DNA of 64,000 nucleotides from Firmicutes bacterium UBA1422 (GTDB taxonomy: Bacteria; Bacillota; Clostridia; Peptostreptococcales; Anaerovoracaceae). Each line of letters opens with the position of its first letter. The first letter of the stretch is position 1. The stretch covers positions 18,650 to 82,649 of the forward strand of contig DBPK01000007.1 in assembly GCA_002304835.1 (NCBI GenBank). Reading direction: 5' to 3'. This document shows positions 6,551 through 32,934 of the stretch, piece after piece. The notes below the pieces were generated by a model. The model was not told the DNA's origin and did no database searches. It was given only the letters and a program-made list of their open reading frames with translations. Made by a program: the position numbers and the translations under genes.

Positions 6551-6556
6551 AAAACA

Positions 6557-8302: not shown

Positions 8303-8315
8303 ACGACTCTCCTTA

Positions 8316-9461: not shown

Positions 9462-9468
9462 TCATCTC

Positions 9469-10866
9469 CTATACTATCATTTCGAACACTTTTTTCACAA
9501 ATAACGGAGGAATTCCTTCACCAATGATTCTTCTCAAGAATGCTTCTGATGTATCATTTGGCACTGGCCATTCATCCGGAATGCTCATGATTTTCATGAG
9601 TTCATAAAGAGTAAGTACTCTTGCATCTGAATAAATATCGTCACCATTATCATCAACATACTCCAATCGCCCTGGGTGAACATTATTCTGAGATGAAATT
9701 TTTCTATTATCCATTGTTACAGTATATGCCGGTGTATCCCAATTTTGTCTTTTGTACGTATTATGATATCCTTTAACCGCATCGCCATTCTCCTTTACTG
9801 GGAAAAAAACTTCATTGTCAAAAGCAGTACAACCTGTCGGTGTATGCTGCATAGCAACAACTTGTCGTTTAAGATGATGCGGCGGATTGTGCCAACATGA
9901 AATATTATGAGCTTCAGCTTCTCTATCTCTAAAATGCGGGAAAAGATCTAGCAATTCTGTCTCGCTTATATCCGTAATAAATGGATCTAGATGCGGCAAA
10001 TCACCTATCGCATCTTCCATTGTCACAATTCTATTATCGTGCCTTGGAATTGTCCATTCCTTTCTCTCGTCTTTTCTAGTCATTAAAACAACCGCACGTT
10101 CCCTAGTTTGTGGAACAGAATAATTCTTTGTGTCAATTACATTTTTGTGAATAATATAATCATCGCTCAATTCATTATCTATCAATTCTTTAATTAAAAC
10201 TTCTTCATTTTCAAGCTCAATTTTCGTATTATAAAATAGGGGAACATTTTCTAAAAAGACGTATCTTGGTTGTACTTTTTTCACAATATCAATGACTGGC
10301 ATAATCAGCTTATTTCGCTCATCATTTAACTGTTGCGGTCCAGCAGTACTCATGCCTTGACACGGAGGTGTCGCCATTATAATGTCGATTTTATTTGCAA
10401 TTGCCTCATCAACTATTTCCCGAAGGATTTCTTTGTCCATAATATCACCACATATCATATGTGCATGAGGATATATCTTCGAATACAGAATAGCCCTTCT
10501 TTCTATAAATTCATTAGCAATTACAACATCTATGCCTATTTCCTTTAAATATGCCTCTGCAACCCCAATATTCGCAAATAATGATAATGCTTTCATGTTG
10601 CCCTCGCCTTCTATTACTTTTTGTTTTATTTGAGAATGAGAAAAATCAGAGTATAGCCTTACAGCCCTTTTTATCTGTGATTTCACAGTTCTGCTTAGCT
10701 CTATATAATTTGATTGTTGTTCTAGCTCAAATAAATACACCTTCTTTCCATGCCATGGCAATATTGAATCCGCACGTTTAAATCTTGACACAGTATTGCT
10801 TATAGTCTTTGACGTATACTCCGTATTATCAATTAACCACAACTTGAAATTGTTCAAATCAATCAT
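9469..10866 (-). CDS. DNA (cytosine-5) methyltransferase with a ~90-aa N-terminal extension (M1.LlaJI-type)
   Basis: ATPPCQGMS, FLENVP, PQTRERAVVL, GEGIPP. RBS AGGAGAAAAAA. Confidence 0.9.
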   Translation of the reverse strand: MIDLNNFKLWLIDNTEYTSKTISNTVSRFKRADSILPWHGKKVYLFELEQQSNYIELSRTVKSQIKRAVRLYSDFSHSQIKQKVIEGEGNMKALSLFANIGVAEAYLKEIGIDVVIANEFIERRAILYSKIYPHAHMICGDIMDKEILREIVDEAIANKIDIIMATPPCQGMSTAGPQQLNDERNKLIMPVIDIVKKVQPRYVFLENVPLFYNTKIELENEEVLIKELIDNELSDDYIIHKNVIDTKNYSVPQTRERAVVLMTRKDERKEWTIPRHDNRIVTMEDAIGDLPHLDPFITDISETELLDLFPHFRDREAEAHNISCWHNPPHHLKRQVVAMQHTPTGCTAFDNEVFFPVKENGDAVKGYHNTYKRQNWDTPAYTVTMDNRKISSQNNVHPGRLEYVDDNGDDIYSDARVLTLYELMKIMSIPDEWPVPNDTSEAFLRRIIGEGIPPLFVKKVFEMIV

Positions 10867-10982: not shown

Positions 10983-12542
10983 TCAATATTTTGGTATCCC
11001 GTATCCATAAATCACACTACCCCCAACCGTGTACGTTCTCCGCCTGCACATGTCGCTGCTATTACCTTCGATGGTTGTTATCGTTTTTCCATTGCAGCTT
11101 TCAACTATGCCAACGTGATCTGCTCCTCCGCCATTCCAATCAAAGAAGATTATATCTCCGGGCTTCGGCGTATAGCTTTTTTTCTGCCACTGACCTTTAC
11201 CTTTGAACCAACTTATCCCAGATTCAACGGCTGCAAATTTAGGTATAGTAGCGCTTTTGATATATCCGCATTGATCTGCACACCATGAAACAAAGCAGGC
11301 ACACCATTCAACTCTGCCATTGAAACCATACCAGCTCCAAAATTTCTTACCGCCTTTATTTCCTATCTGCTGTGCTGCGACCTTTGTGATCACACCATTC
11401 CCAACGCCGTAATTGTAACTGCCGTATGGATAATATCTGAGGACATGAGCCGGATACTGTTTGTCTCCATAAGATGACCATCCATGCTTCTTTGCCTGCT
11501 GATCTGAGAATAGCGAAGCATTTTCAACAGTATAACCCCCATCCCGTTTCACCGCCCAAGATATATATCCATTGCCATAGTTGTATCCCTGAAGTGCAAG
11601 TCTGATGTGACTCATATCGAGAGGGCTTTTACATTTTGCCTGTTTGAGACACGACGCTACTTCCTGGACTCCGCATGATATTGAATAATCCGGATCCGTT
11701 ATGCCGTTTGGCTGCTTAGAGTACTTCTTGTTGAACGGTCCTTCTGAAGACTGCATCGGGTCTTCTCCTTTGCCTCCCGATTCCTGCATCATGACTGCCT
11801 TTACAAGCTCTGTGTATTCCGAGATCCCATATTTCTGACAGTATTTCTGTATCACAGGCGAATAAGCTTCCACCTCTGCACTTACCGGCGTATAGTTGCC
11901 CGAGCTCTCATCTCCAAACATATAAAAAGCTGCCCCGAAAAGGCAGCAAACAACTATCGCTATTATTGCTATCCATCCTCCTGCAGCTATAGCCTGCACG
12001 AGAGCCTTCATGCTTTCTATGATCATGCGTACGGCTTTGATGGTAGCCTTACCGATACGCTTCGTTTCCTTCACTGCTTCCTTGGCCGCTTTACGCATTC
12101 GCTCTTCCGAGGATATGACAAGTCTTTCGTTGGCATAACGTCTGGCAGCATCTGCCTTTCTCACTATTCCTATCTGTCTTGTGACCTGCCTCTTGTTTGC
12201 AAAGTTCCTTGTTTTTATCGAAGCTATTTCTTCTGCCGACTTTGCGTACGCTTCTGCAGATGCAGCATAACCGCTTTTTATCCTATGCTCCTTCATCTTT
12301 ACTTTGGCCTTTGATACCAATGCCCTTGTCGCCTTTTCGGATGTTGAAAGCCCATTTTCTGCTGCGTTTCTCATTTTGTCAGTGGCATATGAAACCGGCG
12401 AATTATCATCACTTTCACGCATAGATTCTGCTCTGTCTTTTGTTTTCGTATATGTCACACGCATACGGTCTGCAACTGATGCTGCCTTATCAAGAGACTT
12501 TATGGCCCCTTTGTTTATTTGTCTGGTACGTATATCTGCCAT
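10983..12542 (-). CDS. Conjugation cell-wall hydrolase (TM + lysozyme-like + CHAP/NlpC-P60 domains)
   Basis: VMMQESGGKGEDPMQSSE (lytic transglycosylase-like). CHAP Cys in WCACFVSWCADQCGY and His in ADHVGIVES. Start set at MADIRTRQ after AAAGGAGAAG. Confidence 0.85.
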   Translation of the reverse strand: MADIRTRQINKGAIKSLDKAASVADRMRVTYTKTKDRAESMRESDDNSPVSYATDKMRNAAENGLSTSEKATRALVSKAKVKMKEHRIKSGYAASAEAYAKSAEEIASIKTRNFANKRQVTRQIGIVRKADAARRYANERLVISSEERMRKAAKEAVKETKRIGKATIKAVRMIIESMKALVQAIAAGGWIAIIAIVVCCLFGAAFYMFGDESSGNYTPVSAEVEAYSPVIQKYCQKYGISEYTELVKAVMMQESGGKGEDPMQSSEGPFNKKYSKQPNGITDPDYSISCGVQEVASCLKQAKCKSPLDMSHIRLALQGYNYGNGYISWAVKRDGGYTVENASLFSDQQAKKHGWSSYGDKQYPAHVLRYYPYGSYNYGVGNGVITKVAAQQIGNKGGKKFWSWYGFNGRVEWCACFVSWCADQCGYIKSATIPKFAAVESGISWFKGKGQWQKKSYTPKPGDIIFFDWNGGGADHVGIVESCNGKTITTIEGNSSDMCRRRTYTVGGSVIYGYGIPKY

Positions 12543-12672
12543 TCGCTCTTCTCCTTTTTTTCCATAAAAAAACAGCCAGCTGCGTCTAAACAACCGGCTG
12601 TCACATTATTATTCATATCAGCAATCGCAAACACCTGCGATCAATGTATGGAAATCAAGTAATCCTGCTTTG

Positions 12673-13473
12673 TTATTTCATGGCATTCAAACCGTCAACG
12701 ATTCCTGACATCACCGTTTCATTTGAGACATCGAGCCAGTTCTTTCTAGATGTTTCCAGCCTCTCGATATACCGCTTATCCTCAAAAGTTGTTCTGACTC
12801 GTTTGAGGATATCTACAATATCGTTTTCTCTCATACCGTCATCTGCAAAAATGAATGTATCAAAGCATTGCAGTAGTCTTTCCTCATTGACCTTATCCAG
12901 TAAGTAATAAATATCATATATGTCTTTGAATCTTGTGGAGAATGGTCCGAATTTTAGTATCGACCTTAACTTTTCCGTAAGCATCTGTTCCTTGGAATTT
13001 ATCAGCAGACTTGCGCCATCATCGTCAAAGCCTATGTCAAAGCAATACTCTTCCTGCGCAATATCTATGTTTTTATTCACGCCAAGGTCTATCTTGCTGT
13101 TGAGTTTTGTTCCTGTTTCATCCTCGATCTCAATATGTATCCTTTTGCCATGATAATCCTGTTGTTTCAGCTCCTCTATCCTGCCAATGATTTTTATCGA
13201 AACATCTCCTGCCTCATTGAGCTTGTTGACGAATCGTTCAATGGAGTCTTCTTCCAGTGAATATCTTATAAAATCGATATCCATATCCTGTGTGGCGCGC
13301 CTCGTATCCTGTGAAATGCTCCGCATCACTACTCCGCCCTTTATTGTACAATTCCTGCTCAGAGTACTTTTGGAGATCATCTGAAGTATGATGTCCTGAC
13401 ACAACTTTGCCTCTGCATTGGCTTCGTTATAACCTTCTTCTTTTATTCTATCTATCTGCTCATTTATATTCAT
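12673..13473 (-). CDS. AbiEii/AbiGii-family nucleotidyltransferase toxin (type IV TA)
   Basis: IKGGVVMRSI..TRRATQDMDIDF NTase-like motif. ATGA start/stop overlap with the upstream AbiEi-like gene. Confidence 0.75.
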   Translation of the reverse strand: MNINEQIDRIKEEGYNEANAEAKLCQDIILQMISKSTLSRNCTIKGGVVMRSISQDTRRATQDMDIDFIRYSLEEDSIERFVNKLNEAGDVSIKIIGRIEELKQQDYHGKRIHIEIEDETGTKLNSKIDLGVNKNIDIAQEEYCFDIGFDDDGASLLINSKEQMLTEKLRSILKFGPFSTRFKDIYDIYYLLDKVNEERLLQCFDTFIFADDGMRENDIVDILKRVRTTFEDKRYIERLETSRKNWLDVSNETVMSGIVDGLNAMK

Positions 13474-14024
13474 CAGAAAATCTCCTCTTCTATAATGCTC
13501 TGTATCTTGACCCTTGCCGGAAACATCGGCAGGTACTCCTGCAGTTTTTCTGTATCTATATCATATACTCGCTCACGGTAACTGCGTACTATCTCTTTGT
13601 AATAATCATATGGCAGCTTGCTTCGATATTTAATCAATTCTATGATCAGCCGTTCAAGATCATATATGCGGATATCAACTCCCTGATGATTCATTTGTGT
13701 TTTCCCAATATCCAGAAGGTCCTCACTGCAGAAATACTGTTTGATCTTTTTGTTGCGTATCTTTGATGCGTTCCTGCCGGTATTGAGTATATATTTATCT
13801 GGGATCACATCCGTAAGGCCATGATAATAGAAGGCGCTGTCGAGAGTTAATATTGCGTTAGGATATTTGAACATAACAAGTTCAAGCTCTGAGACTCTGT
13901 CTCTATCAGCATATATGCCTTTTTCGATCTGGAACAACGTCCCATCGTTTACTGCTTTTTTCAGATTGTAATCAGTCCCGTATTTATCCATACATGCGCG
14001 ATATGAATAGATCATTCCTGGCAT
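13473..14024 (-). CDS. AbiEi-family antitoxin / transcriptional regulator
   Basis: N-terminal wHTH-like GTLFQIEKGIYADRD and ILTLDSAFYYHGLTD pattern typical of AbiEi. Translationally coupled to AbiEii. Confidence 0.7.
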   Translation of the reverse strand: MPGMIYSYRACMDKYGTDYNLKKAVNDGTLFQIEKGIYADRDRVSELELVMFKYPNAILTLDSAFYYHGLTDVIPDKYILNTGRNASKIRNKKIKQYFCSEDLLDIGKTQMNHQGVDIRIYDLERLIIELIKYRSKLPYDYYKEIVRSYRERVYDIDTEKLQEYLPMFPARVKIQSIIEEEIF

Positions 14025-14041
14025 CTCCTTTCAAGCGATTA

Positions 14042-14066
14042 TCCGCAAGTAGTATGTGTTTGCGGA
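14042..14066. promoter_or_regulatory. Inverted repeat upstream of abiEi (possible autoregulatory operator)
   Basis: TCCGCAA-n11-TTGCGGA located 18 bp upstream of the AbiEi start. Confidence 0.3.
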
Positions 14067-14167
14067 CTTTTACTTAAATTATACTGAAAAATATCTATTT
14101 GTCAACAGCATAAGTAAAAATATGTATCGGCAGCAATCTCTTGCCGCCATAAAGTCAGAAATCATTA

Positions 14168-16513
14168 CTATGATTTCACATCTTCCAATCCCTCTCCCGG
14201 CTTTGTCGTCATCAGTTTATATAGTTTGGTATCCTTTGGAAAACTGTTGGCGAATGGTACGAGACTCGATCCAACCTTTATCAATCCATGCCCTGCATCC
14301 ACGTTAGTAATATACGAAAGCTGCAGATCCGAGATGTTAAGAAGTTTGGCCAGCTCCTCTCTGTCCATAGCCGCCTGGTTCAGCATTACTATGAACTCTG
14401 AGTTTGAAAGCATGGTCCTTGCTGTGTGTGACTGCAAAAGGTCATCCACATTCTGAGTTATGCCGGTGCAGTAAGCTCCGTACTTTCTCACCCTCTTCCA
14501 GAGCTTGAACAGGAACTGCGCTGAATACTCATGCATGAACAAAAGGTATATCTCATCAATGAACAGAAAAGTCTGCTTCCCTTTCTGCCTGTTACTTGTG
14601 ATACGGTTCAGTATAGAATCCAGTATGACCAGCATGCCTATTGCCCTCAGCTGTTCGCCCAGTTCGAGGATGTCGTAGCATATGAGACGATTGTCAGTAT
14701 TGACATTGGTCTGTTTTGCGAAGGTATTGAGAGAGCCTCTTGTGAAGAGCTCAAGCTCAAGAGCCAGTGACTTTGCCTCAGGCTCCTCCTGCCTGAGAAG
14801 CTCATCTCTGAAATCCCGAAGAGTCGGTGGCGTGCCTTTGTAGTCACCCTGCTTATAGTAGCGATATACATTCTCAGTACAACGGTCTATGATAGACTGC
14901 TGGCCTTTTGCGAAGTGATGCCCCGCTATGATCTGCTCACAGAGGGACTGCAGGAATTGAGACTTTTCTATGATAGGATCCACCTCTCCATAGTCCTTGC
15001 TCATGTCCATTGCATTGATATGATTAGGCGATGTGGCTGAGATCTCGATGACCGAGCCACCCATCGCTCTTACAAGTGGGGCATACTCGCGCTCCGGATC
15101 TATTATGATTATGTCTGCATCTGAGGACAGCATGAGATTAGTGATCTCGTTCTTCCCTGTAAATGACTTACCCGAACCGGACACGCCCAGAATGAATGAA
15201 TTGCCGTTGAGGAGCTTTCTCCTGTCTGCTATCATCATATTTTTGCTTATGACGTTCTGCCCATAGTATATCCCGTTTTCATCATATACTTCCTGTACTC
15301 TAAAGGGCATGAACACCGCAAGACTTTCTGTAGTAAGCGTTCTGAAGGCATCGATCTTCCTCACCCCGAAGGGCAGCGCCGTCATAAGTCCGTCAAGCTG
15401 CTGATACCTTAGCACTGAAAGCTGACAGAGATGTTTCCTCGCTGTTGTAAGTATGGCTTCAGTATCATTATCAAGCTGCTTCTTTGTATCTGCAGTATGA
15501 ACGATTGTAACGACTGCAAACATCATCCTCTGATCTCTTGTCGTAAGATCGTCCAGGAAGTCTTTTGATTCCTTTCTCTGCTGCTCCATATCGTACGGCA
15601 CTACCGCAGAAAAGTTGTTGTTCATGTTCTGCCTTCTCTGCCAGTTGGTTATATTGGTCTCGACTCCAAGAAGCCTGTTCTCCACTTCTCTTACCGCCTC
15701 ATCTGTTGGCACAGGCACCACGTCGATGGAAAGCATCATGTTCCTGTTCACGTCAGTAAGCTCCGCCACCATACTGTCCTTGATATATGACGCATAGTCT
15801 CTGAGAAGCAGAACTCTTCCATATCTGCCGCCTATCATGAAATATTCGCCGTCATTCTCAAATCCATCAGGGCAGATATAGTCCTTAAAGTCCGCCCCCT
15901 TCTTCATGTGATCATCAAAGTCAAAGTGGAAGGTAGTTTCCTCGCCGCTCCTCATGAAGTCGTGTATGATCCGAAGCCTCGCTTCTCCGTCAAGCTCCGT
16001 ACAGACAGAACCAAGCCTTCCAAAATGAGATATGAGATCAGTCCCTACTCTTGAAAAATATGTCCTTGCATCCTCTATGTCTTTCTTTGCTACCGATACG
16101 GTCACATACTTGTCCTGCACTATGGAATTTGATCCCGTGGCTTTCTCCATAAGCATATGGTTGTATTCCTGCCTGTACTCGTTGAGGCCGTCTTCCTTCA
16201 TGTCTATAAGGATCTGCTTCTCAAAATCATCGCGGTTGAGTCTTCTGTTGTTGATAGTGATCTTGGTCGTTGCTCCGCTGTCTAAGGAGTTAAGTAGCTC
16301 TGAATACTCAAGAAACATCGCCTCCTTATCATCCTTTGACGCTACCGCATAGTTTATGTCTTCAAAGCGGAACATTTTGCTATACTTGTTTTTGCCGGAC
16401 AAAAATATCCCGTCCGGCCATATGGTCTTGACGGGGATCATGTCCTGCAGCTTCTTAGGCACCTCGACCTTTTCCTTATCCTGTTTCATCATATTAGTCA
16501 GTGTCTTTATCAT
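14168..16513 (-). CDS. virB4: VirB4-family conjugative T4SS ATPase
   Basis: 781 aa. Walker A ILGVSGSGKSF, Walker B TFLFIDEIY. Overlaps the PrgI-like gene. Confidence 0.9.
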   Translation of the reverse strand: MIKTLTNMMKQDKEKVEVPKKLQDMIPVKTIWPDGIFLSGKNKYSKMFRFEDINYAVASKDDKEAMFLEYSELLNSLDSGATTKITINNRRLNRDDFEKQILIDMKEDGLNEYRQEYNHMLMEKATGSNSIVQDKYVTVSVAKKDIEDARTYFSRVGTDLISHFGRLGSVCTELDGEARLRIIHDFMRSGEETTFHFDFDDHMKKGADFKDYICPDGFENDGEYFMIGGRYGRVLLLRDYASYIKDSMVAELTDVNRNMMLSIDVVPVPTDEAVREVENRLLGVETNITNWQRRQNMNNNFSAVVPYDMEQQRKESKDFLDDLTTRDQRMMFAVVTIVHTADTKKQLDNDTEAILTTARKHLCQLSVLRYQQLDGLMTALPFGVRKIDAFRTLTTESLAVFMPFRVQEVYDENGIYYGQNVISKNMMIADRRKLLNGNSFILGVSGSGKSFTGKNEITNLMLSSDADIIIIDPEREYAPLVRAMGGSVIEISATSPNHINAMDMSKDYGEVDPIIEKSQFLQSLCEQIIAGHHFAKGQQSIIDRCTENVYRYYKQGDYKGTPPTLRDFRDELLRQEEPEAKSLALELELFTRGSLNTFAKQTNVNTDNRLICYDILELGEQLRAIGMLVILDSILNRITSNRQKGKQTFLFIDEIYLLFMHEYSAQFLFKLWKRVRKYGAYCTGITQNVDDLLQSHTARTMLSNSEFIVMLNQAAMDREELAKLLNISDLQLSYITNVDAGHGLIKVGSSLVPFANSFPKDTKLYKLMTTKPGEGLEDVKS

Positions 16514-16922
16514 GCTTTCGTCTCCTCTCTGTTATCCAGGCCAGCATCTTCATTTTCAGCCTGTACGATCTTTTACTTTCTCTTTTCTTTTGCTCTCTTG
16601 CGTCTCTGATCACGGTGACATACATATTCGTATTCCCGAAATCAAGCGTCTTCGGCATGAGCATCTCCGACTTCAGGAATGCCCACAGGAACTTCTCTGC
16701 TGTCATTCCGTTATATTTCAGAAAGCCTATGGCAGCAAAAGGCACGGCTGCAACTATGCAAACCCAGCTTACTGTCTCAAGGCCAAGGATCGGCCGCAGT
16801 GTAAAATACACTACGACCGCGACCCCGCAGGCCAGAACAGAAAAAATGAACTGCCGAAGTGACAGCCCAAAGAACATGGATTCCGTATAGTTACGGATCT
16901 CTCTGTTTATCTTTACTTCCAT
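16494..16922 (-). CDS. PrgI/TcpE-family conjugal transfer membrane protein
   Basis: YTESMFFGLSLRQFIF followed by two TM segments. Position immediately upstream of VirB4. Confidence 0.6.
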   Translation of the reverse strand: MEVKINREIRNYTESMFFGLSLRQFIFSVLACGVAVVVYFTLRPILGLETVSWVCIVAAVPFAAIGFLKYNGMTAEKFLWAFLKSEMLMPKTLDFGNTNMYVTVIRDAREQKKRESKRSYRLKMKMLAWITERRRKHDKDTD

Positions 16923-16925
16923 CTG

Positions 16926-17882
16926 CTACCTCCCTGCCTCCGATACTCTGCTGCCGAGTTCCGGCGCCGCCTGCATGGTCTCAAGCTTTCTTTCTCCCAT
17001 GTCAAAATGATATACGCTATCTGAGAGCACATCCTTTGGCGCGACTACGGAACTGTTTGCGTCTTTTACCATATCCGTAAGCTGCCCTGCATCAAATCCC
17101 GCTGATTCCGGTACCACTATGACTTCGTGGAGCGAACTTGGAAGGACATAATATCCTTCTCCTATCTTCTCGCTGATCTGCTCCTGGATCTCAGGATAAA
17201 AAAGAGCAGAGGCACCAAGCACTCCGCTCGCATTCGATAGGACATACATATTGCTTCTCTCATAGAGAGGCCCTTCTGTATCCAGGACATTACTATGCGA
17301 TACCCCGAACATATTCCTCTCCATATCCATCATGACCGGCGGATCAACGCTTCTCACATTGGAAAGAGCATCAAAGAACAGTTTTCTTTTATCGTAACCG
17401 TACTTCTCCATCATATCTTTTGTGATAGTGGTCCTCCATTCTCCGTCTTCGCCCGATCTCAGCTTGATATCAAAGACAAGAGCGAGGCCATTGCCAACAG
17501 GCATATACGGCGTGTTAACCAGGTACATGCGATTACGCTTCATCTCCAAAAGTCTGAAGGTCAGCTTATCCTTTATGCTGCTGTAATCAAGTGGAAGCTC
17601 ATCCGGCTTGATCTCCGGTCTTTTTGCTTCTTTGAACACACCTACAACTTCTTGCATCAACTCTTTCATGGATTCTCCGTTTTCAAAGCGTTCATAGAAG
17701 CTGTCGAGATATATGTTAGGCGATATATCTTCGTTCCCATTTTTGAGAGATACTCCGTGAAGCTCTATATCATTACACTTGAGCACTGTGTTCATGGCAA
17801 GAGCAGTGCCCTTTCTCACGTCTTCCGGAAGCTGCTCCAAAAGCTCGTCCATTGCTCTGCCCCAAAATTCCTGCTTATTCAT
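16926..17882 (-). CDS. Conserved ICE protein (DUF5688-like), function unknown
   Basis: 318-aa ORF in the backbone. Family assignment is from memory of the NDIELHGVSL..ISPNIYLDSFYERFENG pattern. Confidence 0.55.
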   Translation of the reverse strand: MNKQEFWGRAMDELLEQLPEDVRKGTALAMNTVLKCNDIELHGVSLKNGNEDISPNIYLDSFYERFENGESMKELMQEVVGVFKEAKRPEIKPDELPLDYSSIKDKLTFRLLEMKRNRMYLVNTPYMPVGNGLALVFDIKLRSGEDGEWRTTITKDMMEKYGYDKRKLFFDALSNVRSVDPPVMMDMERNMFGVSHSNVLDTEGPLYERSNMYVLSNASGVLGASALFYPEIQEQISEKIGEGYYVLPSSLHEVIVVPESAGFDAGQLTDMVKDANSSVVAPKDVLSDSVYHFDMGERKLETMQAAPELGSRVSEAGR

Positions 17883-17960: not shown

Positions 17961-18797
17961 CTACAGACCCATCATCTCTCTGACGATGCGATCGCTCATT
18001 TTGACTGCGCCCACAAGCACCAACATATTGAACACAAGCTCGCCGATATATTTCCATACCATTGCAGCCGGTGCTGCATCAGCGTCCACAACAGGCGGAC
18101 TCGATGCGAACATACTGAATATGATGCATGCAAGCACTATGATTGCGCCTTCAAGACATACTGCTGCATATGACTTAAGAAAACTTTTCCCTATCTGCTC
18201 TGTTGGCTGCCCTGCAAAAGTCGACAGCGGTATTGGTGCTATAGCCGTATACATATACAGCTTGAAGAACCTGCCGTATACCGTCAAAATGATGATGAAT
18301 GACAGCACTATTATGAACAGACTTCCTATGAGAGTCACCGCCCAAAGAGGTATGCTTTCAAAGAATCCGCAGTCCTCTATGGCATCTATCATCTTCTGCG
18401 GGAGCACCGTCTTGTTCACGCTCCCTATCCCGGATGATTTCATGATCGTACTGATCACTCCCTGGATGATGGTAAAAAGCGCAAGCATAAGTTCAAGGCC
18501 ATAAGTCACGACTGCTTTAGCAATAGCAAATCTTATGAACAGCTTCAATGCATGCTCAGGCTTCTTGACTTCTGTAAGCGAAGCACTGGTCCTCACCATA
18601 CCTGCCAGGAAAAATAAAACGAGCAGTGCAAGGCCGATCGCCTGTACTGCTCCGTTGATATTTAGGATCACATCCCATATTTCCCCGCCCTTGAAGTTCT
18701 CCGGCGACTGCGTCAAAAGCTGCCATACTTCGGCCAGTTTTTCGTTCCATGTTGACAGTGAGTTCTGCAGGTTCTGTACTACCCAGTTGTCTGACAC
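17961..18797 (-). CDS. VirB6/TrbL-like polytopic membrane protein (CD0415/CD1112 family)
   Basis: 278 aa with several TM segments. GTG start after AGGAGGTG. Backbone position is between the VirB4 module and Maff2. Confidence 0.65.
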   Translation of the reverse strand: MSDNWVVQNLQNSLSTWNEKLAEVWQLLTQSPENFKGGEIWDVILNINGAVQAIGLALLVLFFLAGMVRTSASLTEVKKPEHALKLFIRFAIAKAVVTYGLELMLALFTIIQGVISTIMKSSGIGSVNKTVLPQKMIDAIEDCGFFESIPLWAVTLIGSLFIIVLSFIIILTVYGRFFKLYMYTAIAPIPLSTFAGQPTEQIGKSFLKSYAAVCLEGAIIVLACIIFSMFASSPPVVDADAAPAAMVWKYIGELVFNMLVLVGAVKMSDRIVREMMGL

Positions 18798-18864
18798 TAT
18801 CCGTCACCTCCTGTTCTTTCTCGATATTTGATTGACTTCACCGATCTGCCTCCTTCCTGATTTT

Positions 18865-18904
18865 TGGTAAAATAAATGACCGGCTGATCATTAACCAGTC
18901 GGCC
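18865..18904 (-). terminator. Probable terminator of the two-gene cargo cassette
   Basis: Imperfect 9-bp stem GACCGGCTG / CAGTCGGCC at 18878-18904 (one wobble, one mismatch on the minus strand), followed by ATTTATTTTA. Confidence 0.4.
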
Positions 18905-18935
18905 ATGTATCTATTGTATTTATCTACTATCAATC

Positions 18936-19949
18936 CTACAAATTATCAAGCTTAGATCCTATTGAATATATTCGCCATTTATTATGCCACTTAACCAGAT
19001 TCATTACATAAATGCCTGGGACAATCTGTTCTTCTTCAATTACGAAGCCTTCGTCAACCCGTTCAAACAAATATATATAAGCGATGCTATGTTCATCATT
19101 GTATCTAACCTTATTGCTGATTCCAATATTTTTTATACCACAAATATAATCATGTGCATCCGAAAAATCCCCCCAATCAAAACGCGTTAATGGATATATC
19201 ATACGTCTTAAATTTTTAACTTTATAGTCTTCTTTCTGTAATTCATATAAAAAAGCATTCCCTACAAAATAAATCCTTTCGGATTCTTCATCCTTTTCTT
19301 CCAAAACGCTTTGCAAGTCCTTCTCTGTAAAATCATGACCATAAATATTTTTCCAATGTGGTGATTTTTCTATACTACGCTTTATTCCTTTATTTGTTAC
19401 TCGCAGCACAGAAGCAGTTTGATTCGCTTGCTGAAACAATTTTGGAATCCCAGACATTTCAATCAAATCATATGTATAAAACAAAATTTTTTCAATACTG
19501 TCAACATATTGATAGATTGCAACAAAGAGAAGTCCTTTGTCTGTTTTTAATACTTTTTCTATCTTACCCTTATCTGCATGCAAATATATCCCATATAATT
19601 CAGCCTCTATCGTTTCCCGCAGATTAAGCTCTGTTCCGTCAGACAGAACCGTTTGCATTTCTGATTCTTCTATTTCATTCAATTTTTTCTTTATGGCTTG
19701 TACTTCTTCTTTATTATCTATACAGTAATCTTCCAAATTTACAAGAATATTCCCTAGATAAACATTATTATTCTTTTTCTTTGTAGTATATTTTCTTAAT
19801 ACCATTAACTTTCCAAAAGTATAATAGTATTCTTTTTCATTCGTACCTGCGATGACATCTTTAGTTTTCTCAGCAGAATTGCAATTTGAAAATGACTTGT
19901 ATTCATCAACGGTGTACATAAAAAGTTGTAAATTTTCTATATCCCTCAT
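18936..19949 (-). CDS. Hypothetical 337-aa protein, partner of the HEPN-like gene
   Basis: AT-rich ORF with RBS TAGGAG, 37 nt downstream of the 771-aa ORF. No motif recognised. Confidence 0.7.
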   Translation of the reverse strand: MRDIENLQLFMYTVDEYKSFSNCNSAEKTKDVIAGTNEKEYYYTFGKLMVLRKYTTKKKNNNVYLGNILVNLEDYCIDNKEEVQAIKKKLNEIEESEMQTVLSDGTELNLRETIEAELYGIYLHADKGKIEKVLKTDKGLLFVAIYQYVDSIEKILFYTYDLIEMSGIPKLFQQANQTASVLRVTNKGIKRSIEKSPHWKNIYGHDFTEKDLQSVLEEKDEESERIYFVGNAFLYELQKEDYKVKNLRRMIYPLTRFDWGDFSDAHDYICGIKNIGISNKVRYNDEHSIAYIYLFERVDEGFVIEEEQIVPGIYVMNLVKWHNKWRIYSIGSKLDNL

Positions 19950-19986
19950 ACAGATCTCCTATACTTACTTTTTAAAGCAAAGAATT

Positions 19987-22242
19987 TCAGTCTTCCGCAC
20001 CAACAGAAAAATTCTCTTTAACAATTTCTGTTCTTTTCATCACCATAGAAATTGATAATAGCGTGATTTTAAATGCATTTTCTTTATCACTATATATGTA
20101 ATCTCTCCCGTGAATACATTCGTTTCGAATATTAAGCGAATTGCTATTATACATCATATTATATATAAATAAAAAATCCGGTACACTTTCAAATGATTTT
20201 TCATGCTCATAAACATCTGTTAGTATTTCTCTTATAATCGAGCTAGGATCCTTATATTTCATGAAATCTTTTTCACTTTCTTTAAATGGTACAATATTTA
20301 CTATGCTGGCGAATTCCCTGATTTTCATTTCCAAAAGTGGAAATAGCTGAGTAATATGTGCAATTGTTATTTCATCTTCAAATGGTATTAATTCAAACTC
20401 TGTATTTTGTTTGACTTTGTCATAAAGCTCTTTTGTTTTATCAAACAATGCTACACGAATTTTGGTTATTTCTTTGTATCTTTTATGAACAGCTTTAACA
20501 TAACTATCTGTGTCAAATTCGTTTAATAGTTTATATCCATATTTACTCTTGATTTCTTCAATTTGTTTCTTCAGAAGTCCGTCCACTTCATGTCTCTCAT
20601 AAGGAAAATTCTGCGGCTCTAATTTAGGGTATTCACTATTCAACTCAACACACTGTGCAAAATTCAAAAACACATTTTTTGACGTATCTTCCATCACCGT
20701 TAAAATGCTATGCAAATCGGGAAACACGCACTCTCTTCCTAATATTATTGCGTCATGTAATACATCCAAATTACAATTGTCTAATGTCTTTTTAGGAATA
20801 GTAAACTCTTGCTTTGCTTCTTTCAATATTGATTTGCTTTGTTCATAATATCTGTCATGCCAGATTTGTTGTTTGTGTATCATCTCCCTCTGAACCATTT
20901 CTTTATTAATATCCTTGTTGCCTTTTAATCTGATTAAAAAAATCATATACCAATAAAACAGGCTTGCGGTCTCTAAATCAATATCGCCACTAATATATTC
21001 GTTGACCTTGCTTATTATCTTACTGAAATAATCATTGTTGATAGTTCTTGTCACGTATACATTTTGTAAATAATCTACAAACTCATTCTTATCAGTAACA
21101 TGATCTATGCGACGATATTGACTATTATAGTAATTCCTCACAATATCTTTTTTTGTTTTCGGTAATGGTATTCCTCTTTCTTTTAGGGTTATTAGTGTTA
21201 CTTCATCTGTCACTTTTTCAAGCGATTGTTCCAGGAGTGCAATTTTATCGTCCATATTTAGTGAAGTTATTGCCTTATCATTAAATAAATATGAAATGAT
21301 TTCAAGTGATGAATAACCCAAAAAATTTATAGTACTGTCATCATTAATAGCATTCGTTAACAATGTAAAATGATCACTTGCAACCTCTTTAGTCATCATG
21401 TTGCCGTTATTTACATAGTCGATACTTTCTAGCACAAAATTTGCCACTTCATTTTTGAAATATGATTTCATCAATTTAATAGTATACTCATCCCAAAGCA
21501 TAATATCCGGATATGAATAATTCCCGAATTCCATACATGGTATAATTTTATGATCTCTAATCCTTATTTTTACCATGTCTAATAAATATTTCTCCTCCCA
21601 AGGCCCATATTGACTAGTTTCTACTTGTTTAAAGTTGAATGCATTCGCATTCCAGATTGCCTCTTTATTGTTATCTATAAACGCAGAATTTGCAGTATGC
21701 TCCACCATATGAATATTATCTAATAAACAGCTTTTAGCCTGTTCAAAACCTTCAATATGGATTGAATCAATATACGATACTATTATTTCTTCATCCTCTT
21801 GCATTCCAGTAAAATTTAAAAGTTTAAACAGATTATAATTAAATAAGCATCGAGTATCCGCTATACTATCAATTTCATTATAAGCATTCCCTAATTTTGT
21901 AAGCCATACAATCAATAATGCTATTTTACCACTAACAGTAGAAGCCTTCTTACTTGCTTCCTCAAATCCCATTAAACCCAAATAATATTTAGCACATATG
22001 AATAGTTCTTCCGAAATCGCATTATCAAAAGAAAAATCAAAATTGTCTATTTTCAGTATCCTAATATAATATGCGTATATCTGCTCGTAATTCCCCCTGC
22101 GTTTTAAATATGAATTCCAATCACTTGCTTCACTCAAGTCATAATTCTTTTCTATTTCCTTAATAAACCACTGCCAATCATTGCTTGCAGCTAATATATT
22201 ATCCATATATTTTACTTCTATATCATGTTCTAAATAATTATT
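19987..22242 (-). CDS. Large protein with C-terminal Rx4H HEPN/DUF4209-like domain. 5' end severed by IS3 (native start is at 23526).
   Basis: C-terminal NSLNIRNECIHGRDY is an R-x4-H motif in a helical region. The ORF-track N-terminus (22243-22302, GTG) lies inside the IS left end. Removing the IS and one ATT copy fuses GGAGG-ttgta-ATG GCA AAT in frame to AAT TAT TTA GAA CAT... (M-A-N-N-Y-L-E-H). Confidence 0.65.
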   Translation of the reverse strand, partial: NNYLEHDIEVKYMDNILAASNDWQWFIKEIEKNYDLSEASDWNSYLKRRGNYEQIYAYYIRILKIDNFDFSFDNAISEELFICAKYYLGLMGFEEASKKASTVSGKIALLIVWLTKLGNAYNEIDSIADTRCLFNYNLFKLLNFTGMQEDEEIIVSYIDSIHIEGFEQAKSCLLDNIHMVEHTANSAFIDNNKEAIWNANAFNFKQVETSQYGPWEEKYLLDMVKIRIRDHKIIPCMEFGNYSYPDIMLWDEYTIKLMKSYFKNEVANFVLESIDYVNNGNMMTKEVASDHFTLLTNAINDDSTINFLGYSSLEIISYLFNDKAITSLNMDDKIALLEQSLEKVTDEVTLITLKERGIPLPKTKKDIVRNYYNSQYRRIDHVTDKNEFVDYLQNVYVTRTINNDYFSKIISKVNEYISGDIDLETASLFYWYMIFLIRLKGNKDINKEMVQREMIHKQQIWHDRYYEQSKSILKEAKQEFTIPKKTLDNCNLDVLHDAIILGRECVFPDLHSILTVMEDTSKNVFLNFAQCVELNSEYPKLEPQNFPYERHEVDGLLKKQIEEIKSKYGYKLLNEFDTDSYVKAVHKRYKEITKIRVALFDKTKELYDKVKQNTEFELIPFEDEITIAHITQLFPLLEMKIREFASIVNIVPFKESEKDFMKYKDPSSIIREILTDVYEHEKSFESVPDFLFIYNMMYNSNSLNIRNECIHGRDYIYSDKENAFKITLLSISMVMKRTEIVKENFSVGAED

Positions 22243-22319
22243 TGGATCTATATTAAATAAGTGGACACGCAAAGTAAATAATTGTACTGTTAAATCAGAC
22301 ACTAAAAGGAGGTATCTGT

Positions 22320-22601
22320 ATGTCCACAGGAAAACGTTATGACGAGGATTTTAAACGCACTCTCGTCGATCTTTACCACAATGGTAAAACGCAGGTCTCA
22401 CTTGTCAAAGAGTATGGTGTTTCTCAAACCGCCTTATCTAAATGGATAAAGCAATACTCTACTGTCGAAACAGAAGATGGAGAAGTCCTTACTGCCAGGC
22501 AGATCAAGGAACTTCAGCAGCGTAATGCCAGGCTCGAAGAGGAAAACCTCATCTTAAAAAAAGCGATTGCCATATTCACGCCACACTCAGACAAAGACTG
22601 A
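22320..22601 (+). CDS. IS3 transposase OrfA (HTH)
   Basis: MSTGKRYDEDFKRTLVDLYHNGKT..SQTALSKWIKQY and a leucine-zipper-like C-terminus. RBS AAAGGAGG. Confidence 0.9.
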   Translation: MSTGKRYDEDFKRTLVDLYHNGKTQVSLVKEYGVSQTALSKWIKQYSTVETEDGEVLTARQIKELQQRNARLEEENLILKKAIAIFTPHSDKD

Positions 22602-23464
22602 ATGCCGTCAACAAGCTGCGTTTCCAACATGATCTGAAAACCCTGTGCCGTGTACTTAATGTCAATCGCAGCACATATTACAAGCATTTCTCGTCGCAGC
22701 CTTCAAAACGCACACGTGAGAATCAGGATCTACGCAACCTGATACTGCACATATATGCTGATTACAATAAACGCCTTGGCGCATATAAGATCAAATATGT
22801 ATTGCAGCGTGACTATGGCATCCGCATCAGCGTCGGAAGAGTGTACCGGCTGATGCGCAGCATGGTTCTGCCTAAGATGTCTACTGTAAAACCTCATTAT
22901 CATTATACATCCGATGACAAAGGTGACTGCACAAACCATCTGAATCAGGCCTTTTCGCAGAAAGCACCCGACATTGTCTGGGTGAGTGATATCACTTACC
23001 TTCGGGCAGGCAGCAAATGGTACTACCTGTGTGTCATCATCGACCTGTTTTCAAGGAAAGTCATCGCCTGGAACCTGTCTCCTAGGATGGATGTCGACCT
23101 CGTCATAATCACATTTAAGAAGGCTTATGGATCACGCCATATGCCTTGCGGTCTCATGTTCCATTCTGACAGAGGCTCGCAGTACACGGCATTTGCATTC
23201 CGCAAGCTGCTTGATGACCTTGATGTCGTTCAGTCCTTTTCCAAGAAGGGTTATCCATTCGATAATGCCGTATCTGAAAGTTTTTTCAAATACCTGAAAA
23301 AGGAACAGACCGGCCGCATGACATATTCAACTATGAGAGAACTTCATATATCCGTCTTTGAATATATCGAGGGGTTTTACAACTCCAGACGGCCTCACGG
23401 TTCTCTGGATTACATGACCCCAAATGAATTTGAGGAGGCCTATTGGAAACAGGTCCAAGCATAA
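22562..23464 (+). CDS. IS3 transposase OrfB (DDE), expressed by -1 frameshift from orfA
   Basis: The -1 frame is open from the slippery TTA AAA AAA G (22554-23563 region; A-run 22556-22562). LCRVLNVNRSTYYKH, DITYL, HSDRGSQY and NAVSESFF..K..E give DDE(K). Confidence 0.85.
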   Translation, partial: SDCHIHATLRQRLNAVNKLRFQHDLKTLCRVLNVNRSTYYKHFSSQPSKRTRENQDLRNLILHIYADYNKRLGAYKIKYVLQRDYGIRISVGRVYRLMRSMVLPKMSTVKPHYHYTSDDKGDCTNHLNQAFSQKAPDIVWVSDITYLRAGSKWYYLCVIIDLFSRKVIAWNLSPRMDVDLVIITFKKAYGSRHMPCGLMFHSDRGSQYTAFAFRKLLDDLDVVQSFSKKGYPFDNAVSESFFKYLKKEQTGRMTYSTMRELHISVFEYIEGFYNSRRPHGSLDYMTPNEFEEAYWKQVQA

Positions 23465-23517
23465 TCTGTTTCCAAAATATATTTAAAAAATGTGTCTATT
23501 TTATTGACTATACTTCA

Positions 23518-23577
23518 ATTTGCCATTACAACCTCCATCTCTTATTAACATTGTATCATATTATCAATAATCGACAA
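23518..23577 (-). promoter_or_regulatory. Orphaned promoter, SD and first three codons of the IS-split HEPN-like gene
   Basis: Minus strand reads TTGTCG (RC of 23572-23577) - 16 nt - TGaTACAAT (-10 = RC of 23550-23555), then GGAGG (RC of 23532-23536), ttgta, ATG GCA AAT (23526-23518). Confidence 0.5.
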
Positions 23578-23611
23578 TGCAATGTATCGGGCAGTTTTGC
23601 CTGCCCTGACC

Positions 23612-23962
23612 TTACCCAACTATCGTATTCAATATTTCCTTTGCAAACGTGATTATAACGCCGCCCGCAAGTGTCAGGAATCCGTTGGCTCTCTGACTCG
23701 GATCGTGCGACTTCAGTGACAGGCCTACCTGCACTATGCCGAATCCAAGCAGTATGAGTCCTATAGCTCTTATCAAACTGAATATGAACGTGGACAGATT
23801 GTTTATGACTGTTATCGGGTTTCCTGCCGCAAAGCATGTCGCAGCTCCCATAGTCAGTGAACACACAAGAGCGCTGTATACTATGAAGGCTCTCCTGCTT
23901 CTTCTCTTTGCCTTATCCAATTCTTCATTTTCCTGTATCTTCTTCAAATTTACCATCTCCAA
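23612..23962 (-). CDS. Maff2-family small membrane protein of conjugative elements
   Basis: 116 aa with two TM segments and an AAGNPI..FIFSLIRAIG..GFGIVQ pattern. Followed by the GGGCAG/CTGCCC hairpin at 23589-23606. Confidence 0.65.
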   Translation of the reverse strand: MEMVNLKKIQENEELDKAKRRSRRAFIVYSALVCSLTMGAATCFAAGNPITVINNLSTFIFSLIRAIGLILLGFGIVQVGLSLKSHDPSQRANGFLTLAGGVIITFAKEILNTIVG

Positions 23963-30119: not shown

Positions 30120-32837
30120 TTATGACAAGTTTAGTGAAGATAAGTGTGCCAATAAGTAAGCATCGGCATTAGAATTTTTAGCATTCAATCTTTCAAGAAC
30201 AGCGTGCTCTGTTTCTGGACTCCAATATATTTTTAATCTTTCTTTTGCTCGTGTAATAGCAGTATAAAAAATATTGTGAGTGATACGTTCTTCTACCTCA
30301 TTTGTAATTACTATTTTCACTGAATTAAATTCTAAACCTTGTGCTTTGTGAATAGAGACCGCGTAAGCAACCTGAAACGGCATCACTGTTGAATCATTGT
30401 CCTCGTCATCTTCATCGGTACTTCGGTGTTTATTAACATTAAAGCCAATAATAGAATGTCCTTTTTCAGATTCTCCCAAAAGGACAAATTCATACCCCTG
30501 AGCATCAAGTTCATTAATTGATTTATCGAGTTCAATGCTGAAAAATATTCTTTTTTCTTCAACAATAATATCACTAATTCTCCCCTTTGAATTGTTATGA
30601 ATAACAGGCGAAAATCTGTTTGCCTCGTTAAACAAAATAGGATCCCCCACTTTATAAGTGTTAATCCCCCATCGTATACTTTCATTTGAATTATTACTTT
30701 GAAGGAATCTATTGACATTGTTAATTCCGTATAATCCATCATAATTAAGGCACAGGATAATCTCATCATCTTCAGTATGTTCAAATATTGATTCATCCAA
30801 TTTCGTTGTAAAACCGTATTTTACAAGCGGTTCTAAAATAGAATCATCAACATTGCGTACGCGATCCCATACTGTGATTAGTTCATCTTTTGTAGTACGG
30901 AATGGGTGCTTTAGTTCAAAAACAGCAGTACGCGGTACAAACTTTCGTACTATTTCAAACCAATTCCCGAAATAGATTGATTCAATCTGAAAAGTATCTC
31001 CAACAAGAACTATCAATTGAAATTTTGCCTTTTCTAAAATTTTTTTCATATCAGCATTACTTACAGTACTACATTCATCTATAAATAAAATGTCACATTC
31101 TGTATCATAATTACTAGAAGAAAGAAACTTTGCTATTGTTCCAAACAAACTATTCCCTGTTGTCACCTTTCTTCTCATATTCTCAACGGCAGGATGTGTA
31201 TTTGCAAGATACATTTTCCTTTTATCTGCCCAAAAATTTGAAATGTGCTTAATTAGTGTTGTTTTCCCTGTCCCTGCTGATCCATATATCAATGCCACTC
31301 GTGATTCTGAAAATAATTGCCGCAATGCTTCTTTCTTATTGTCATCATCTATCTCATATGCGTCAGTAGTTAGCCATGAATCAACCGAATTTGTATAATG
31401 TGCTATTCCAGATGAAGAAAGTTTTTGAATAGTTTCAATAATTTCGGTGCTGTCCTCAACATATTCTTTAATATAAATGTACCCTTCAAAACTCTCAAGT
31501 CTACGATTCTGATGTTTATAATACAGCAATCCATTATACTTTCTAATTAGTCCATCAATATCATCAAAGTCTTGAATATCATCTTTTGGAGTAAATAGTT
31601 TCCCCTCAGTTTCAGTATTGTTTTTAATAAATCTCGCAAAAAGCTCATGTTCGCGACCGTCAATTGGGATTGACTCAAACAAGTCATAAATCCTAGGGTT
31701 ATGCCTTACTAAAGATGTACAATATGGCATTTTATCAAACGGAATACAACTATAGCTTAAATACAGATTCTCTAATCTATCGCATTGTTCCCCATACAGT
31801 TGTTCCTTTATTATTCTATTGTTCATGTTATATAGCAAATATCTTATTATATTAGCACCCGGTTTTGTTTTGATAATAATATTCCTACATTCATCAAGAA
31901 GTTCAAATATCTTTATTGCCTGGCTACGTGATGTGACTGTTGCTTTTACAGAATCATAATAAACTTGACCACATGTTACCAATTCCGTTAGTGATATTTT
32001 CCCTTCTGTAAGGAATTTCATCAATTCACCGTATTCGCTTAAGGATGTGCTTATCTGCATACGTCTACCGAAAATCTCAGAAAAATTCTGGAACTCACAT
32101 GGCCTTATAGAAACTGTCCACCCTTCAATAACTTGAATTGTCATACTTTTATCCAGTATATTTATTACATCATCATGTATATTGAATTTTACGGCATAAT
32201 TACTGACTATTTCATGTTTTGTAAAAGCAATCACCCGATCAAATTTACTGGTTTTTGCATTTGCATCAGTGAAAGTTACTTCATAGTAAATCCGATTATT
32301 TACAAAAAATGGCTTGATCTTCTGAACATAATATCGATCATCATAGTGCCCTGCTTTACAATCCCTACTTGGATTCTCAATTATCATAGCAATTCTTGCA
32401 TAGTAATCCGATAATTCCTTGTCGGTATCTATAGGAAAATCCTGAATATTATTGAGAATTTGCATATCATATTTTGTATCAAGAAAGTTTTTTATTCTTA
32501 GCAGATACTCATAGTATTTTAGCATTAAGCGTTCTGATCCATCTTTATTCACGGTATAATGTGAAACGGATTTCTGTAGCATTTTATGAAACCTGCTAAC
32601 AAATCTCATGTCGCCATGTGCTGCAATTTCATTTAATAATTTTTCCCTTTCATCATAATCATTTGGATCAATGTCTTTGCCATTTGACATGGCTTTCATA
32701 GCAACATATTCAACAAGATTTCTTATTTGGCTCAATATGTTTTGGCTCAATATTCCTCTTTCTTCCAAATCAAACTTTGAAATATTCTCACAAATTACAT
32801 TGTCTGTATTTATAATAGCTTCATCTATTCTTAGCAT
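30120..32837 (-). CDS. Orphan SF1 (RecD-like, AAA_30/UvrD_C_2-type) helicase with a ~520-aa uncharacterised N-terminal region
   Basis: Walker A LIYGSAGTGKTTLI, Walker B ILFIDECSTV, motif III VLVGDTFQIESI, SIHKAQGLEF, YTAITRAKERL. Start set at ATG (MLRIDE) after GTGAGGT. AT-rich. Confidence 0.8.
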   Translation of the reverse strand: MLRIDEAIINTDNVICENISKFDLEERGILSQNILSQIRNLVEYVAMKAMSNGKDIDPNDYDEREKLLNEIAAHGDMRFVSRFHKMLQKSVSHYTVNKDGSERLMLKYYEYLLRIKNFLDTKYDMQILNNIQDFPIDTDKELSDYYARIAMIIENPSRDCKAGHYDDRYYVQKIKPFFVNNRIYYEVTFTDANAKTSKFDRVIAFTKHEIVSNYAVKFNIHDDVINILDKSMTIQVIEGWTVSIRPCEFQNFSEIFGRRMQISTSLSEYGELMKFLTEGKISLTELVTCGQVYYDSVKATVTSRSQAIKIFELLDECRNIIIKTKPGANIIRYLLYNMNNRIIKEQLYGEQCDRLENLYLSYSCIPFDKMPYCTSLVRHNPRIYDLFESIPIDGREHELFARFIKNNTETEGKLFTPKDDIQDFDDIDGLIRKYNGLLYYKHQNRRLESFEGYIYIKEYVEDSTEIIETIQKLSSSGIAHYTNSVDSWLTTDAYEIDDDNKKEALRQLFSESRVALIYGSAGTGKTTLIKHISNFWADKRKMYLANTHPAVENMRRKVTTGNSLFGTIAKFLSSSNYDTECDILFIDECSTVSNADMKKILEKAKFQLIVLVGDTFQIESIYFGNWFEIVRKFVPRTAVFELKHPFRTTKDELITVWDRVRNVDDSILEPLVKYGFTTKLDESIFEHTEDDEIILCLNYDGLYGINNVNRFLQSNNSNESIRWGINTYKVGDPILFNEANRFSPVIHNNSKGRISDIIVEEKRIFFSIELDKSINELDAQGYEFVLLGESEKGHSIIGFNVNKHRSTDEDDEDNDSTVMPFQVAYAVSIHKAQGLEFNSVKIVITNEVEERITHNIFYTAITRAKERLKIYWSPETEHAVLERLNAKNSNADAYLLAHLSSLNLS

Positions 32838-32934
32838 TTTATGTAACCTCACTTTTGTAACATTATCTTTAATTGACCATGTGATAATTAATTATATCAC
32901 ATGGTCAAATTCCAAAGTTGTATACTTGGGCGTT

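Follow-up and report, generated by a model that had tools for sequence, protein, structure and literature searches.

A predicted solo HEPN-type gene, split by an IS3-family element, beside an unrelated cargo gene in a Firmicute conjugative element

The DNA analyzed here (the window) is a stretch of 64,000 nucleotides from Firmicutes bacterium UBA1422 (contig DBPK01000007.1, positions 18,650 to 82,649 of the forward strand), and our subject is an insert of two leftwards-transcribed genes, A and B, that lies within a Firmicute conjugative element, with a pilin-like gene on one side and VirB6/TrbL on the other. The flanking conjugative genes code for a VirD4 coupling protein, a TrbC/pilin-like protein, TrbL/VirB6, a DUF5688 protein, VirB4, a relaxase, and a DUF3991-Toprim primase. 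The G+C content (GC) is 0.301 for A, 0.311 for B, 0.431 for an insertion sequence (IS) that splits A, and 0.45–0.47 for the flanking type IV secretion system (T4SS) genes; the AT-rich cassette described in a first reading of this DNA (the initial annotation) is thus plainly present, at 0.30–0.31 against about 0.47 in the backbone. The features of the insert are as follows.

18878..18900, minus strand: terminator-like hairpin past B, then a T-rich tail (ATTTATTTTA); the sole such site in 18700–23750
18936..19949, minus strand: gene B, 337 amino acids (aa) (open reading frame (ORF) call, own family, structure model)
19950..19986, minus strand: A-B spacer of 37 nt, with AGGAG ahead of the B start (sequence read)
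19987..22242, minus strand: body of gene A, codons 3–753 plus stop (ORF calls, IS-less reconstruction, HMMER family)
19990..20391, minus strand: predicted HEPN RNase domain of A, residues about 620–753 (invariant residues, sub-threshold DUF4209 matches)
22243..23517, plus strand: IS3-family insertion sequence, 1275 bp (Pfam matches; ends and duplication read)
23521..23536, minus strand: original A translation start, GGAGG at 23536–23532 and ATG GCA at 23526–23521 (sequence read)
23550..23577, minus strand: promoter-like site upstream of the original A start, TTGTCG, 16 nt, TG-TACAAT (consensus match only)

The insert had been proposed to be an autonomous unit, and the ribosome-binding site (RBS), the ORFs, the 37-nt gap, the AGGAG and the hairpin are all in place. 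The A promoter, however, is only plausible, because promoter-like sites are not enriched in the AT-rich region (25 found versus 22.8 expected from shuffled sequence). B is probably co-transcribed with A here.

The IS splits gene A after codon 2. It contains two ORFs, orfA (22320–22601), which matches HTH_Tnp_1 (1e-11, Pfam), and orfB (22802–23464), which matches rve (2.7e-25), has imperfect terminal inverted repeats (TGAAGTATAG... and TGGATCTATA...), and is flanked by a 3-bp AAT duplication at 22240–22242 and 23518–23520. Two ORFs with helix-turn-helix and DDE/rve functions, TG...CA ends with inverted repeats, and a 3-bp duplication are the hallmarks by which it is placed in the IS3 family. 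When the IS is removed, 23526–23521 joins to 22242–19987 to give an in-frame ORF of 753 aa beginning MANNYLEHD, with GGAGG five bases ahead of ATG 23526. The block directly past the join, NYLEHE.xVKY, is conserved in A homologues, which shows that the reconstruction is correct.

In the window as it stands, the ORF for A is 19987–22302 (minus strand; 771 aa) and opens at a GTG inside the IS end that lacks an RBS; the start called for the NCBI record (P0001, 739 aa) is M15, and loses the conserved N-terminal block. Because the IS cuts off the promoter, RBS and start, this copy of A has probably been inactivated by the insertion, in agreement with the earlier view that the gene was knocked off its start. 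A search for an IS-less allele yielded nothing, as only one other contig carries B, and that contig, 100% identical, breaks off within A.

Gene A belongs to a sizeable family. Using the window-encoded residues 3–753, as was also done for structure prediction, an exhaustive HMMER search recovers 266 representatives at 50% identity with E<=1e-3, 136 of them with E<=1e-30; complete members are nearly all 740–760 aa and align end to end. A word-index search with A alone returns three relatives besides A itself, and we note that rarity inferred from its four proteins would have been badly wrong next to the 266 representatives. No member was found in plasmid, phage and viral-contig collections, including by tblastn.

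Across 66 aligned full-length members, which share 18–40% identity with the window protein, conservation of 95% or more is seen in only 15 of about 750 columns, and nine of these fall within residues 634–713: Q634, F636, P637 and E640, which share one helix, and L672, N706, R708, N709 and H713. P637 and E640 lie in the sequence QLFPxLE of the predicted HEPN domain, and N706, R708, N709 and H713 form a motif, N-[IVL]-R-N-x3-H-G, that is invariant in all 66 members. The string RNECIH (residues 708–713, window 20110–20127) is the sole R-x4-6-H in A. One such string per protein is the chance expectation, but here the single one is invariant; it is the R-x4-H motif that the initial annotation had picked out near the C-terminus. 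At the level of sequence, the C-terminal RNxxxH of A, in which a polar residue (N709) follows the R as in the HEPN superfamily, is a genuine, family-invariant HEPN-type signature.

The only Pfam family to recur among the 66 members is DUF4209, which 13 of them match with E<0.01, the best at 1.4e-5. A further Pfam scan covered nine members and the domain consensus: eight of the nine match DUF4209 on the motif region with 13.8–20.6 bits, and the consensus does so with 17.4 bits, all below the gathering cut-off; one of the nine has no match. The link to DUF4209 made in the initial annotation stands, as the only recurrent one, though below the gathering score, and with such scores A is a distant relative of DUF4209 and not a Pfam member. 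The invariant motif and the recurrent matches together argue that A carries a HEPN-type domain distantly related to that family. A profile of the C-terminal domain, run in the word-index search, returned nothing but A-family fragments; DUF4209 proteins were absent from its matches, which gives no bridge between the two families.

The N-terminal part of A, about 615 aa, is mostly helical and has no second R...H motif; no ATPase, other signature or counterpart was found for it in any library searched. In Pfam, neither A nor any of the 66 members matches an ATPase or P-loop family, and no transmembrane segment, TPR or WD40 fusion was found in A. Searches of PDB sequences with profiles of A, B and the HEPN domain gave nothing credible.

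The genomic contexts of A homologues were taken from 39 genome loci, found by a pattern scan of one genome per species, and from two metagenome loci. Almost all of the 39 are in Firmicutes (Clostridia, Lachnospiraceae, Streptococcus, Anaerococcus, Lactobacillus iners and Abiotrophia), and a cluster look-up adds Listeria monocytogenes (a WP_099183576.1-type gene) and L. innocua to the family, in both of which the annotation reads 'hypothetical protein'. Five Streptococcus loci have the order HsdR-A-HsdS-(variable genes)-HsdM, with A preceded by gaps of 52 nt (L027) or about 120–170 nt (the others) and followed by about 13 nt, so that these homologues lie in a restriction-modification (R-M)-related operon, a context absent for A in the window itself. 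The Dorea hominis homologue has a PglX-type methylase on one side and PglZ on the other, within a BREX locus; one metagenome locus has A directly after DndBCDEA and HNH, and another locus directly ahead of an OLD-TOPRIM ATPase and a UvrD helicase (Gabija-like). Five loci have A directly after guaA, two of which (L020 and L021) have an integrase, repressor and excisionase on the other side, and further homologues adjoin serine recombinases or a Mu-type transposase; some copies are accordingly carried by small integrative elements. No neighbor is conserved across the loci. When 129 A-flanking proteins were scanned with PADLOC, redundant type I specificity models drowned out the other matches, and the picture is qualitative only. 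The R-M, BREX, Dnd and Gabija-like placements put A homologues in defense loci, which supports the initial annotation on this point.

Homologues of A are split by a stop or frameshift, or truncated, in L014, L023, L037, L041 and L046. Together with the IS insertion in the window these copies suggest that members of the family are frequently inactivated, and they fit the behavior of costly defense genes, with errors of metagenome assembly as another possible source.

Several regions near A homologues carry other genes. In Streptococcus (L027, L028, L032 and L045, at about 12250–17000) the stretch between hsdS and hsdM holds different inserts in different species, for example a 621-aa AAA_21 ATPase, or genes of 398, 592 and 251 aa, or of 174 and 272 aa, and the type I R-M operon looks like a hotspot for embedded genes. 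A pair coding for 1162 and 608 aa is directly upstream of the A homologue in L043 (4684–9973) and L025, and a pair of about 270 and about 1100 aa is a few kb downstream in L011 (16776–20949) and L043 (16518–20538). Neither pair has a Pfam match, and both may be further uncharacterized defense genes.

Gene B has a family of its own: the word search gives 11 relatives, and members are present in 121 metagenome loci, mostly from the human gut, in one viral contig, and on one Enterococcus faecium plasmid, whose relative is distant and solo and is the only one from tblastn of the plasmid and phage collections. Its structure model (predicted local distance difference test (pLDDT) of 84) has a helical N-terminal half and an NTF2-like alpha+beta C-terminal half, and conserved motifs are LRKY, YGxxLHxD and DWGDF. 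Foldseek matches of the model in the PDB are NTF2-like and weak throughout, BFVD yields nothing of use, and there is no match to B in PADLOC-DB 2.0 at E up to 1. The idea that B is a second HEPN protein was rejected, since neither of its two R-x4-6-H strings is conserved across the B family and one of them falls in the beta-rich half. Neighbors of B homologues vary: in 14 loci a SIR2-STALD-TIR protein is one gene away, and others are a Schlafen/AlbA_2 protein, glycosyltransferases, transporters and transposases.

The initial annotation had treated A and B as a two-gene cassette and candidate system. A B-family profile run against all ORFs of the 41 A loci finds no B homologue within 10 kb of A (39 genome and two metagenome loci), and profiles of A and of its HEPN domain find no homologue in 84 B loci. 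The two genes do not co-occur in these loci, and on this ground, one that the initial annotation itself had named, a general two-gene A-B system is refuted. A narrower version, in which A and B are a genuine two-component system in this lineage and B is a newly recruited antitoxin, immunity protein or sensor, would explain their common strand, the 37-nt gap with its own RBS, the near-identical GC (0.30 and 0.31) and the single terminator-like site past B, and NTF2-like folds do occur among immunity proteins, Tai3 being one in the Foldseek list of B. We consider it distinctly improbable, given that the other gene is absent from all 41 A loci and all 84 B loci, that the E. faecium plasmid relative of B is solo, that A homologues remain intact with no conserved partner, and that the neighbors of B are unrelated to A by profile comparison.

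In that comparison, proteins of 347, 333, 523, 248, 372 and 326 aa beside B homologues, and those of 398 and 327 aa in L007, were considered as hidden relatives of A or B and rejected (hhalign probabilities all below 1%). Three of these sizes recur together: in L097–L125, from human-gut metagenomes, a clade of 340-aa B homologues is consistently flanked by a 347-aa gene upstream and by 333- and 523-aa genes downstream. The flanking genes have no Pfam match, and the arrangement may be a conserved multi-gene block.

The position of B between the pilin-like gene and VirB6/TrbL might also suggest that it is an accessory conjugation protein, a VirB8/TcpC-like NTF2 protein beside which A has inserted, and its Foldseek matches include PrgL (VirB8 domain) and a TcpC-type 'Ntf2 like protein involved in plasmid conjugation'. 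These matches are weak, however (E 0.1–0.4, template modeling score about 0.2–0.4), B has no transmembrane segment and a GC of 0.31 against 0.47 in the T4SS genes, and most B homologues are far from such genes. Moreover, in a related conjugative element (L004–L006) the pilin-like gene is directly followed by TrbL and the B homologue occupies another slot, between the primase and AbiEii. A conjugative role for B is thus very improbable indeed. B is a stand-alone cargo gene, unrelated to A and not its partner, and we favor with moderate confidence the view that A and B are two independently mobile low-GC cargo genes juxtaposed in one slot of the conjugative element.

Given the uniform architecture of about 750 aa, the lack of a conserved neighbor and the lack of A-B co-occurrence, A is most readily seen as acting solo. 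The reading we prefer, at a probability of roughly 60%, is that A is a single-polypeptide HEPN RNase-type abortive-infection effector, and not part of a two-gene system.

A number of observations weigh against this reading. The window protein itself scores 13.7 bits on DUF4209 (residues 668–714), below the Pfam gathering cut-off of 22.3. Its AlphaFold model, built from a four-sequence alignment, has a pLDDT of 57.7 and is too poor to show a four-helix fold; the model places helices at 633–647, 666–683, 688–699, 702–710 and 720–746, where the pLDDT is about 41–77. A Foldseek search of the PDB with this model gave only karyopherin/HEAT-like solenoids with E>0.03, which we treat as meaningless. 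PADLOC (PADLOC-DB 2.0, E up to 1), NCBIfam, PHROGs and PDB sequence searches give nothing for A. The A loci were found through HEPN-motif patterns and their genes called with a crude ORF picker, by which distant contexts are under-sampled, and the tight A-B spacing and shared terminator also fit an operon. Finally, HEPN domains also occur in non-defense RNA processing and in toxin-antitoxin pairs.

In one alternative A would serve mobile elements, as a toxin for addiction or stabilization or as a factor in RNA processing, and would owe its defense contexts to hitch-hiking in variable regions. Many copies do adjoin integrases, recombinases or relaxases, and several, listed above, are split or truncated. 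Placement with short gaps inside type I R-M and BREX operons is, by contrast, typical of defense genes and hard to explain by addiction alone, and no cognate antitoxin gene is conserved beside A; we regard a non-immune role as unlikely.

As an abortive-infection effector, A could act as follows. Single-HEPN proteins build their active site across a dimer, and the single C-terminal HEPN domain of A would likewise dimerize to form a composite R...H site. The helical N-terminal region of about 615 residues would serve as a sensor or regulatory domain that holds the RNase off, until it is released by a phage product or by failure of an accompanying R-M or BREX system, by analogy with PrrC, ApeA and DARNA/PD-T7-3. 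Activated A would then cut RNA, most likely tRNA, and bring about growth arrest of the infected cell. We infer RNase activity, dimerization, N-terminal sensing and abortive infection alike from such analogies: in PrrC, ApeA, DARNA, Csm6 and Cas13 the RNase is latent until an infection cue releases it (PMC12839542; bioRxiv 10.64898/2026.02.22.705581), and HEPN effectors embedded in BREX and R-M loci serve as backup effectors (PMC12839542).

Among described proteins, the closest to A by sequence are the C6orf70/ERMARD-type HEPN proteins (DUF4209, PF13910), which match below threshold on the R-N-x3-H region. This family is predicted to be catalytically active, and its bacterial versions are reported in R-M-related operons (Anantharaman et al. 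2013, PMC3710099), a context that the Streptococcus A homologues share. A differs in scoring 13.7–20.6 bits against the 22.3 required (window protein, nine members and consensus) and in lacking a transmembrane segment and a TPR or WD40 fusion. The broad family was probably already seen computationally in 2013.

By design, the closest is DARNA/PD-T7-3, which is encoded by a single gene and combines one HEPN domain with a large all-helical non-catalytic domain, and which is an abortive-infection tRNA nuclease that is off until a phage cue (bioRxiv 10.64898/2026.02.22.705581). DARNA is 456 aa long with an N-terminal HEPN domain, whereas A has 753 aa and a C-terminal one. PADLOC, which gave no match to A, presumably includes a PD-T7-3 model.

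By genomic logic, A is closest to PrrC of the EcoprrI type Ic R-M locus, an R...H RNase inside a type I R-M operon, to which the Streptococcus HsdR-A-HsdS-HsdM arrangement is positionally analogous. PrrC is held latent by the R-M complex and has an N-terminal ABC-type ATPase domain; unlike PrrC and RloC, A has no P-loop or ATPase match, and the window copy is not beside an R-M system. ApeA, AbiF/AbiD (Abi_2), AbiJ, AbiU2, AbiV and other solo HEPN Abi proteins are, like A, stand-alone effectors on defense islands and mobile elements, but A is larger, has another domain order, and shares no detectable sequence similarity with them (PADLOC, Pfam). A is a member of no named system, although solo HEPN proteins are themselves a well established kind. 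The earlier statement that the pair is not recognizable as any named system is accordingly upheld by the PADLOC and NCBIfam searches, but needs the qualification that solo HEPN effectors in R-M and BREX loci are well known.

The remaining cargo of the window includes recognizable defense genes. These had been described as adjoining the cassette, which is not the case: the nearest, AbiEii (12673–13473) and an LlaJI-type R-M module (5327–10866), are beyond the VirB6/VirB4 block. The LlaJI-type module (minus strand) is complete and is located in a second AT-rich block (GC about 0.34–0.37), with two C5 cytosine methylases (8316–9461 and 9469–10866), an AAA_5 McrB-like ATPase (6557–8302) and an RE_LlaJI endonuclease (5327–6550). 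The AbiEii nucleotidyltransferase toxin (minus strand), located between a lysozyme/CHAP gene and VirB4, is abutted by a 183-aa ORF ahead of it (13473–14024) that is presumably its AbiEi partner. A third AT-rich block (30120–32852, minus strand, GC about 0.32–0.35) codes for a 910-aa superfamily 1 helicase that matches AAA_30 and UvrD_C_2 in Pfam and the Dda-like phrog_325 at 7e-79; it is just upstream of the DUF3991-Toprim primase, and in L004–L006 the B homologue is just downstream of the primase. The window also codes for an 854-aa surface protein (34577–37141, minus strand), an adhesin of a kind typical of conjugative elements in Gram-positive bacteria, which has a thioester domain (TED_2) together with four T-Q ester-bond domains.

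For the A family at large a more specific proposal can be made, which we hold only as a speculative and rather doubtful one: its members may be widespread Firmicute 'guard' RNases (in Listeria, Streptococcus, Lactobacillus iners and gut Clostridia) whose N-terminal domain monitors the integrity of co-encoded type I R-M, BREX or Dnd complexes and, once these are disabled by phage anti-restriction proteins, fires the HEPN domain, in which case B could be a newly recruited modulator in this element. If true, this would be PrrC-like logic arising from an unrelated, ATPase-free sensor.

With its 266 representatives the A family is sizeable, yet Pfam, NCBIfam, PADLOC and PHROG have no model for it, no relative has a solved structure, and its members in medically relevant Firmicutes, such as Listeria monocytogenes, are annotated only as 'hypothetical protein'. 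Their repeated placement in type I R-M and BREX operons makes A a concrete and cheap candidate for a new single-gene anti-phage effector, and the link between RNase 'backup' effectors and DNA-targeting systems could also be studied in this family.

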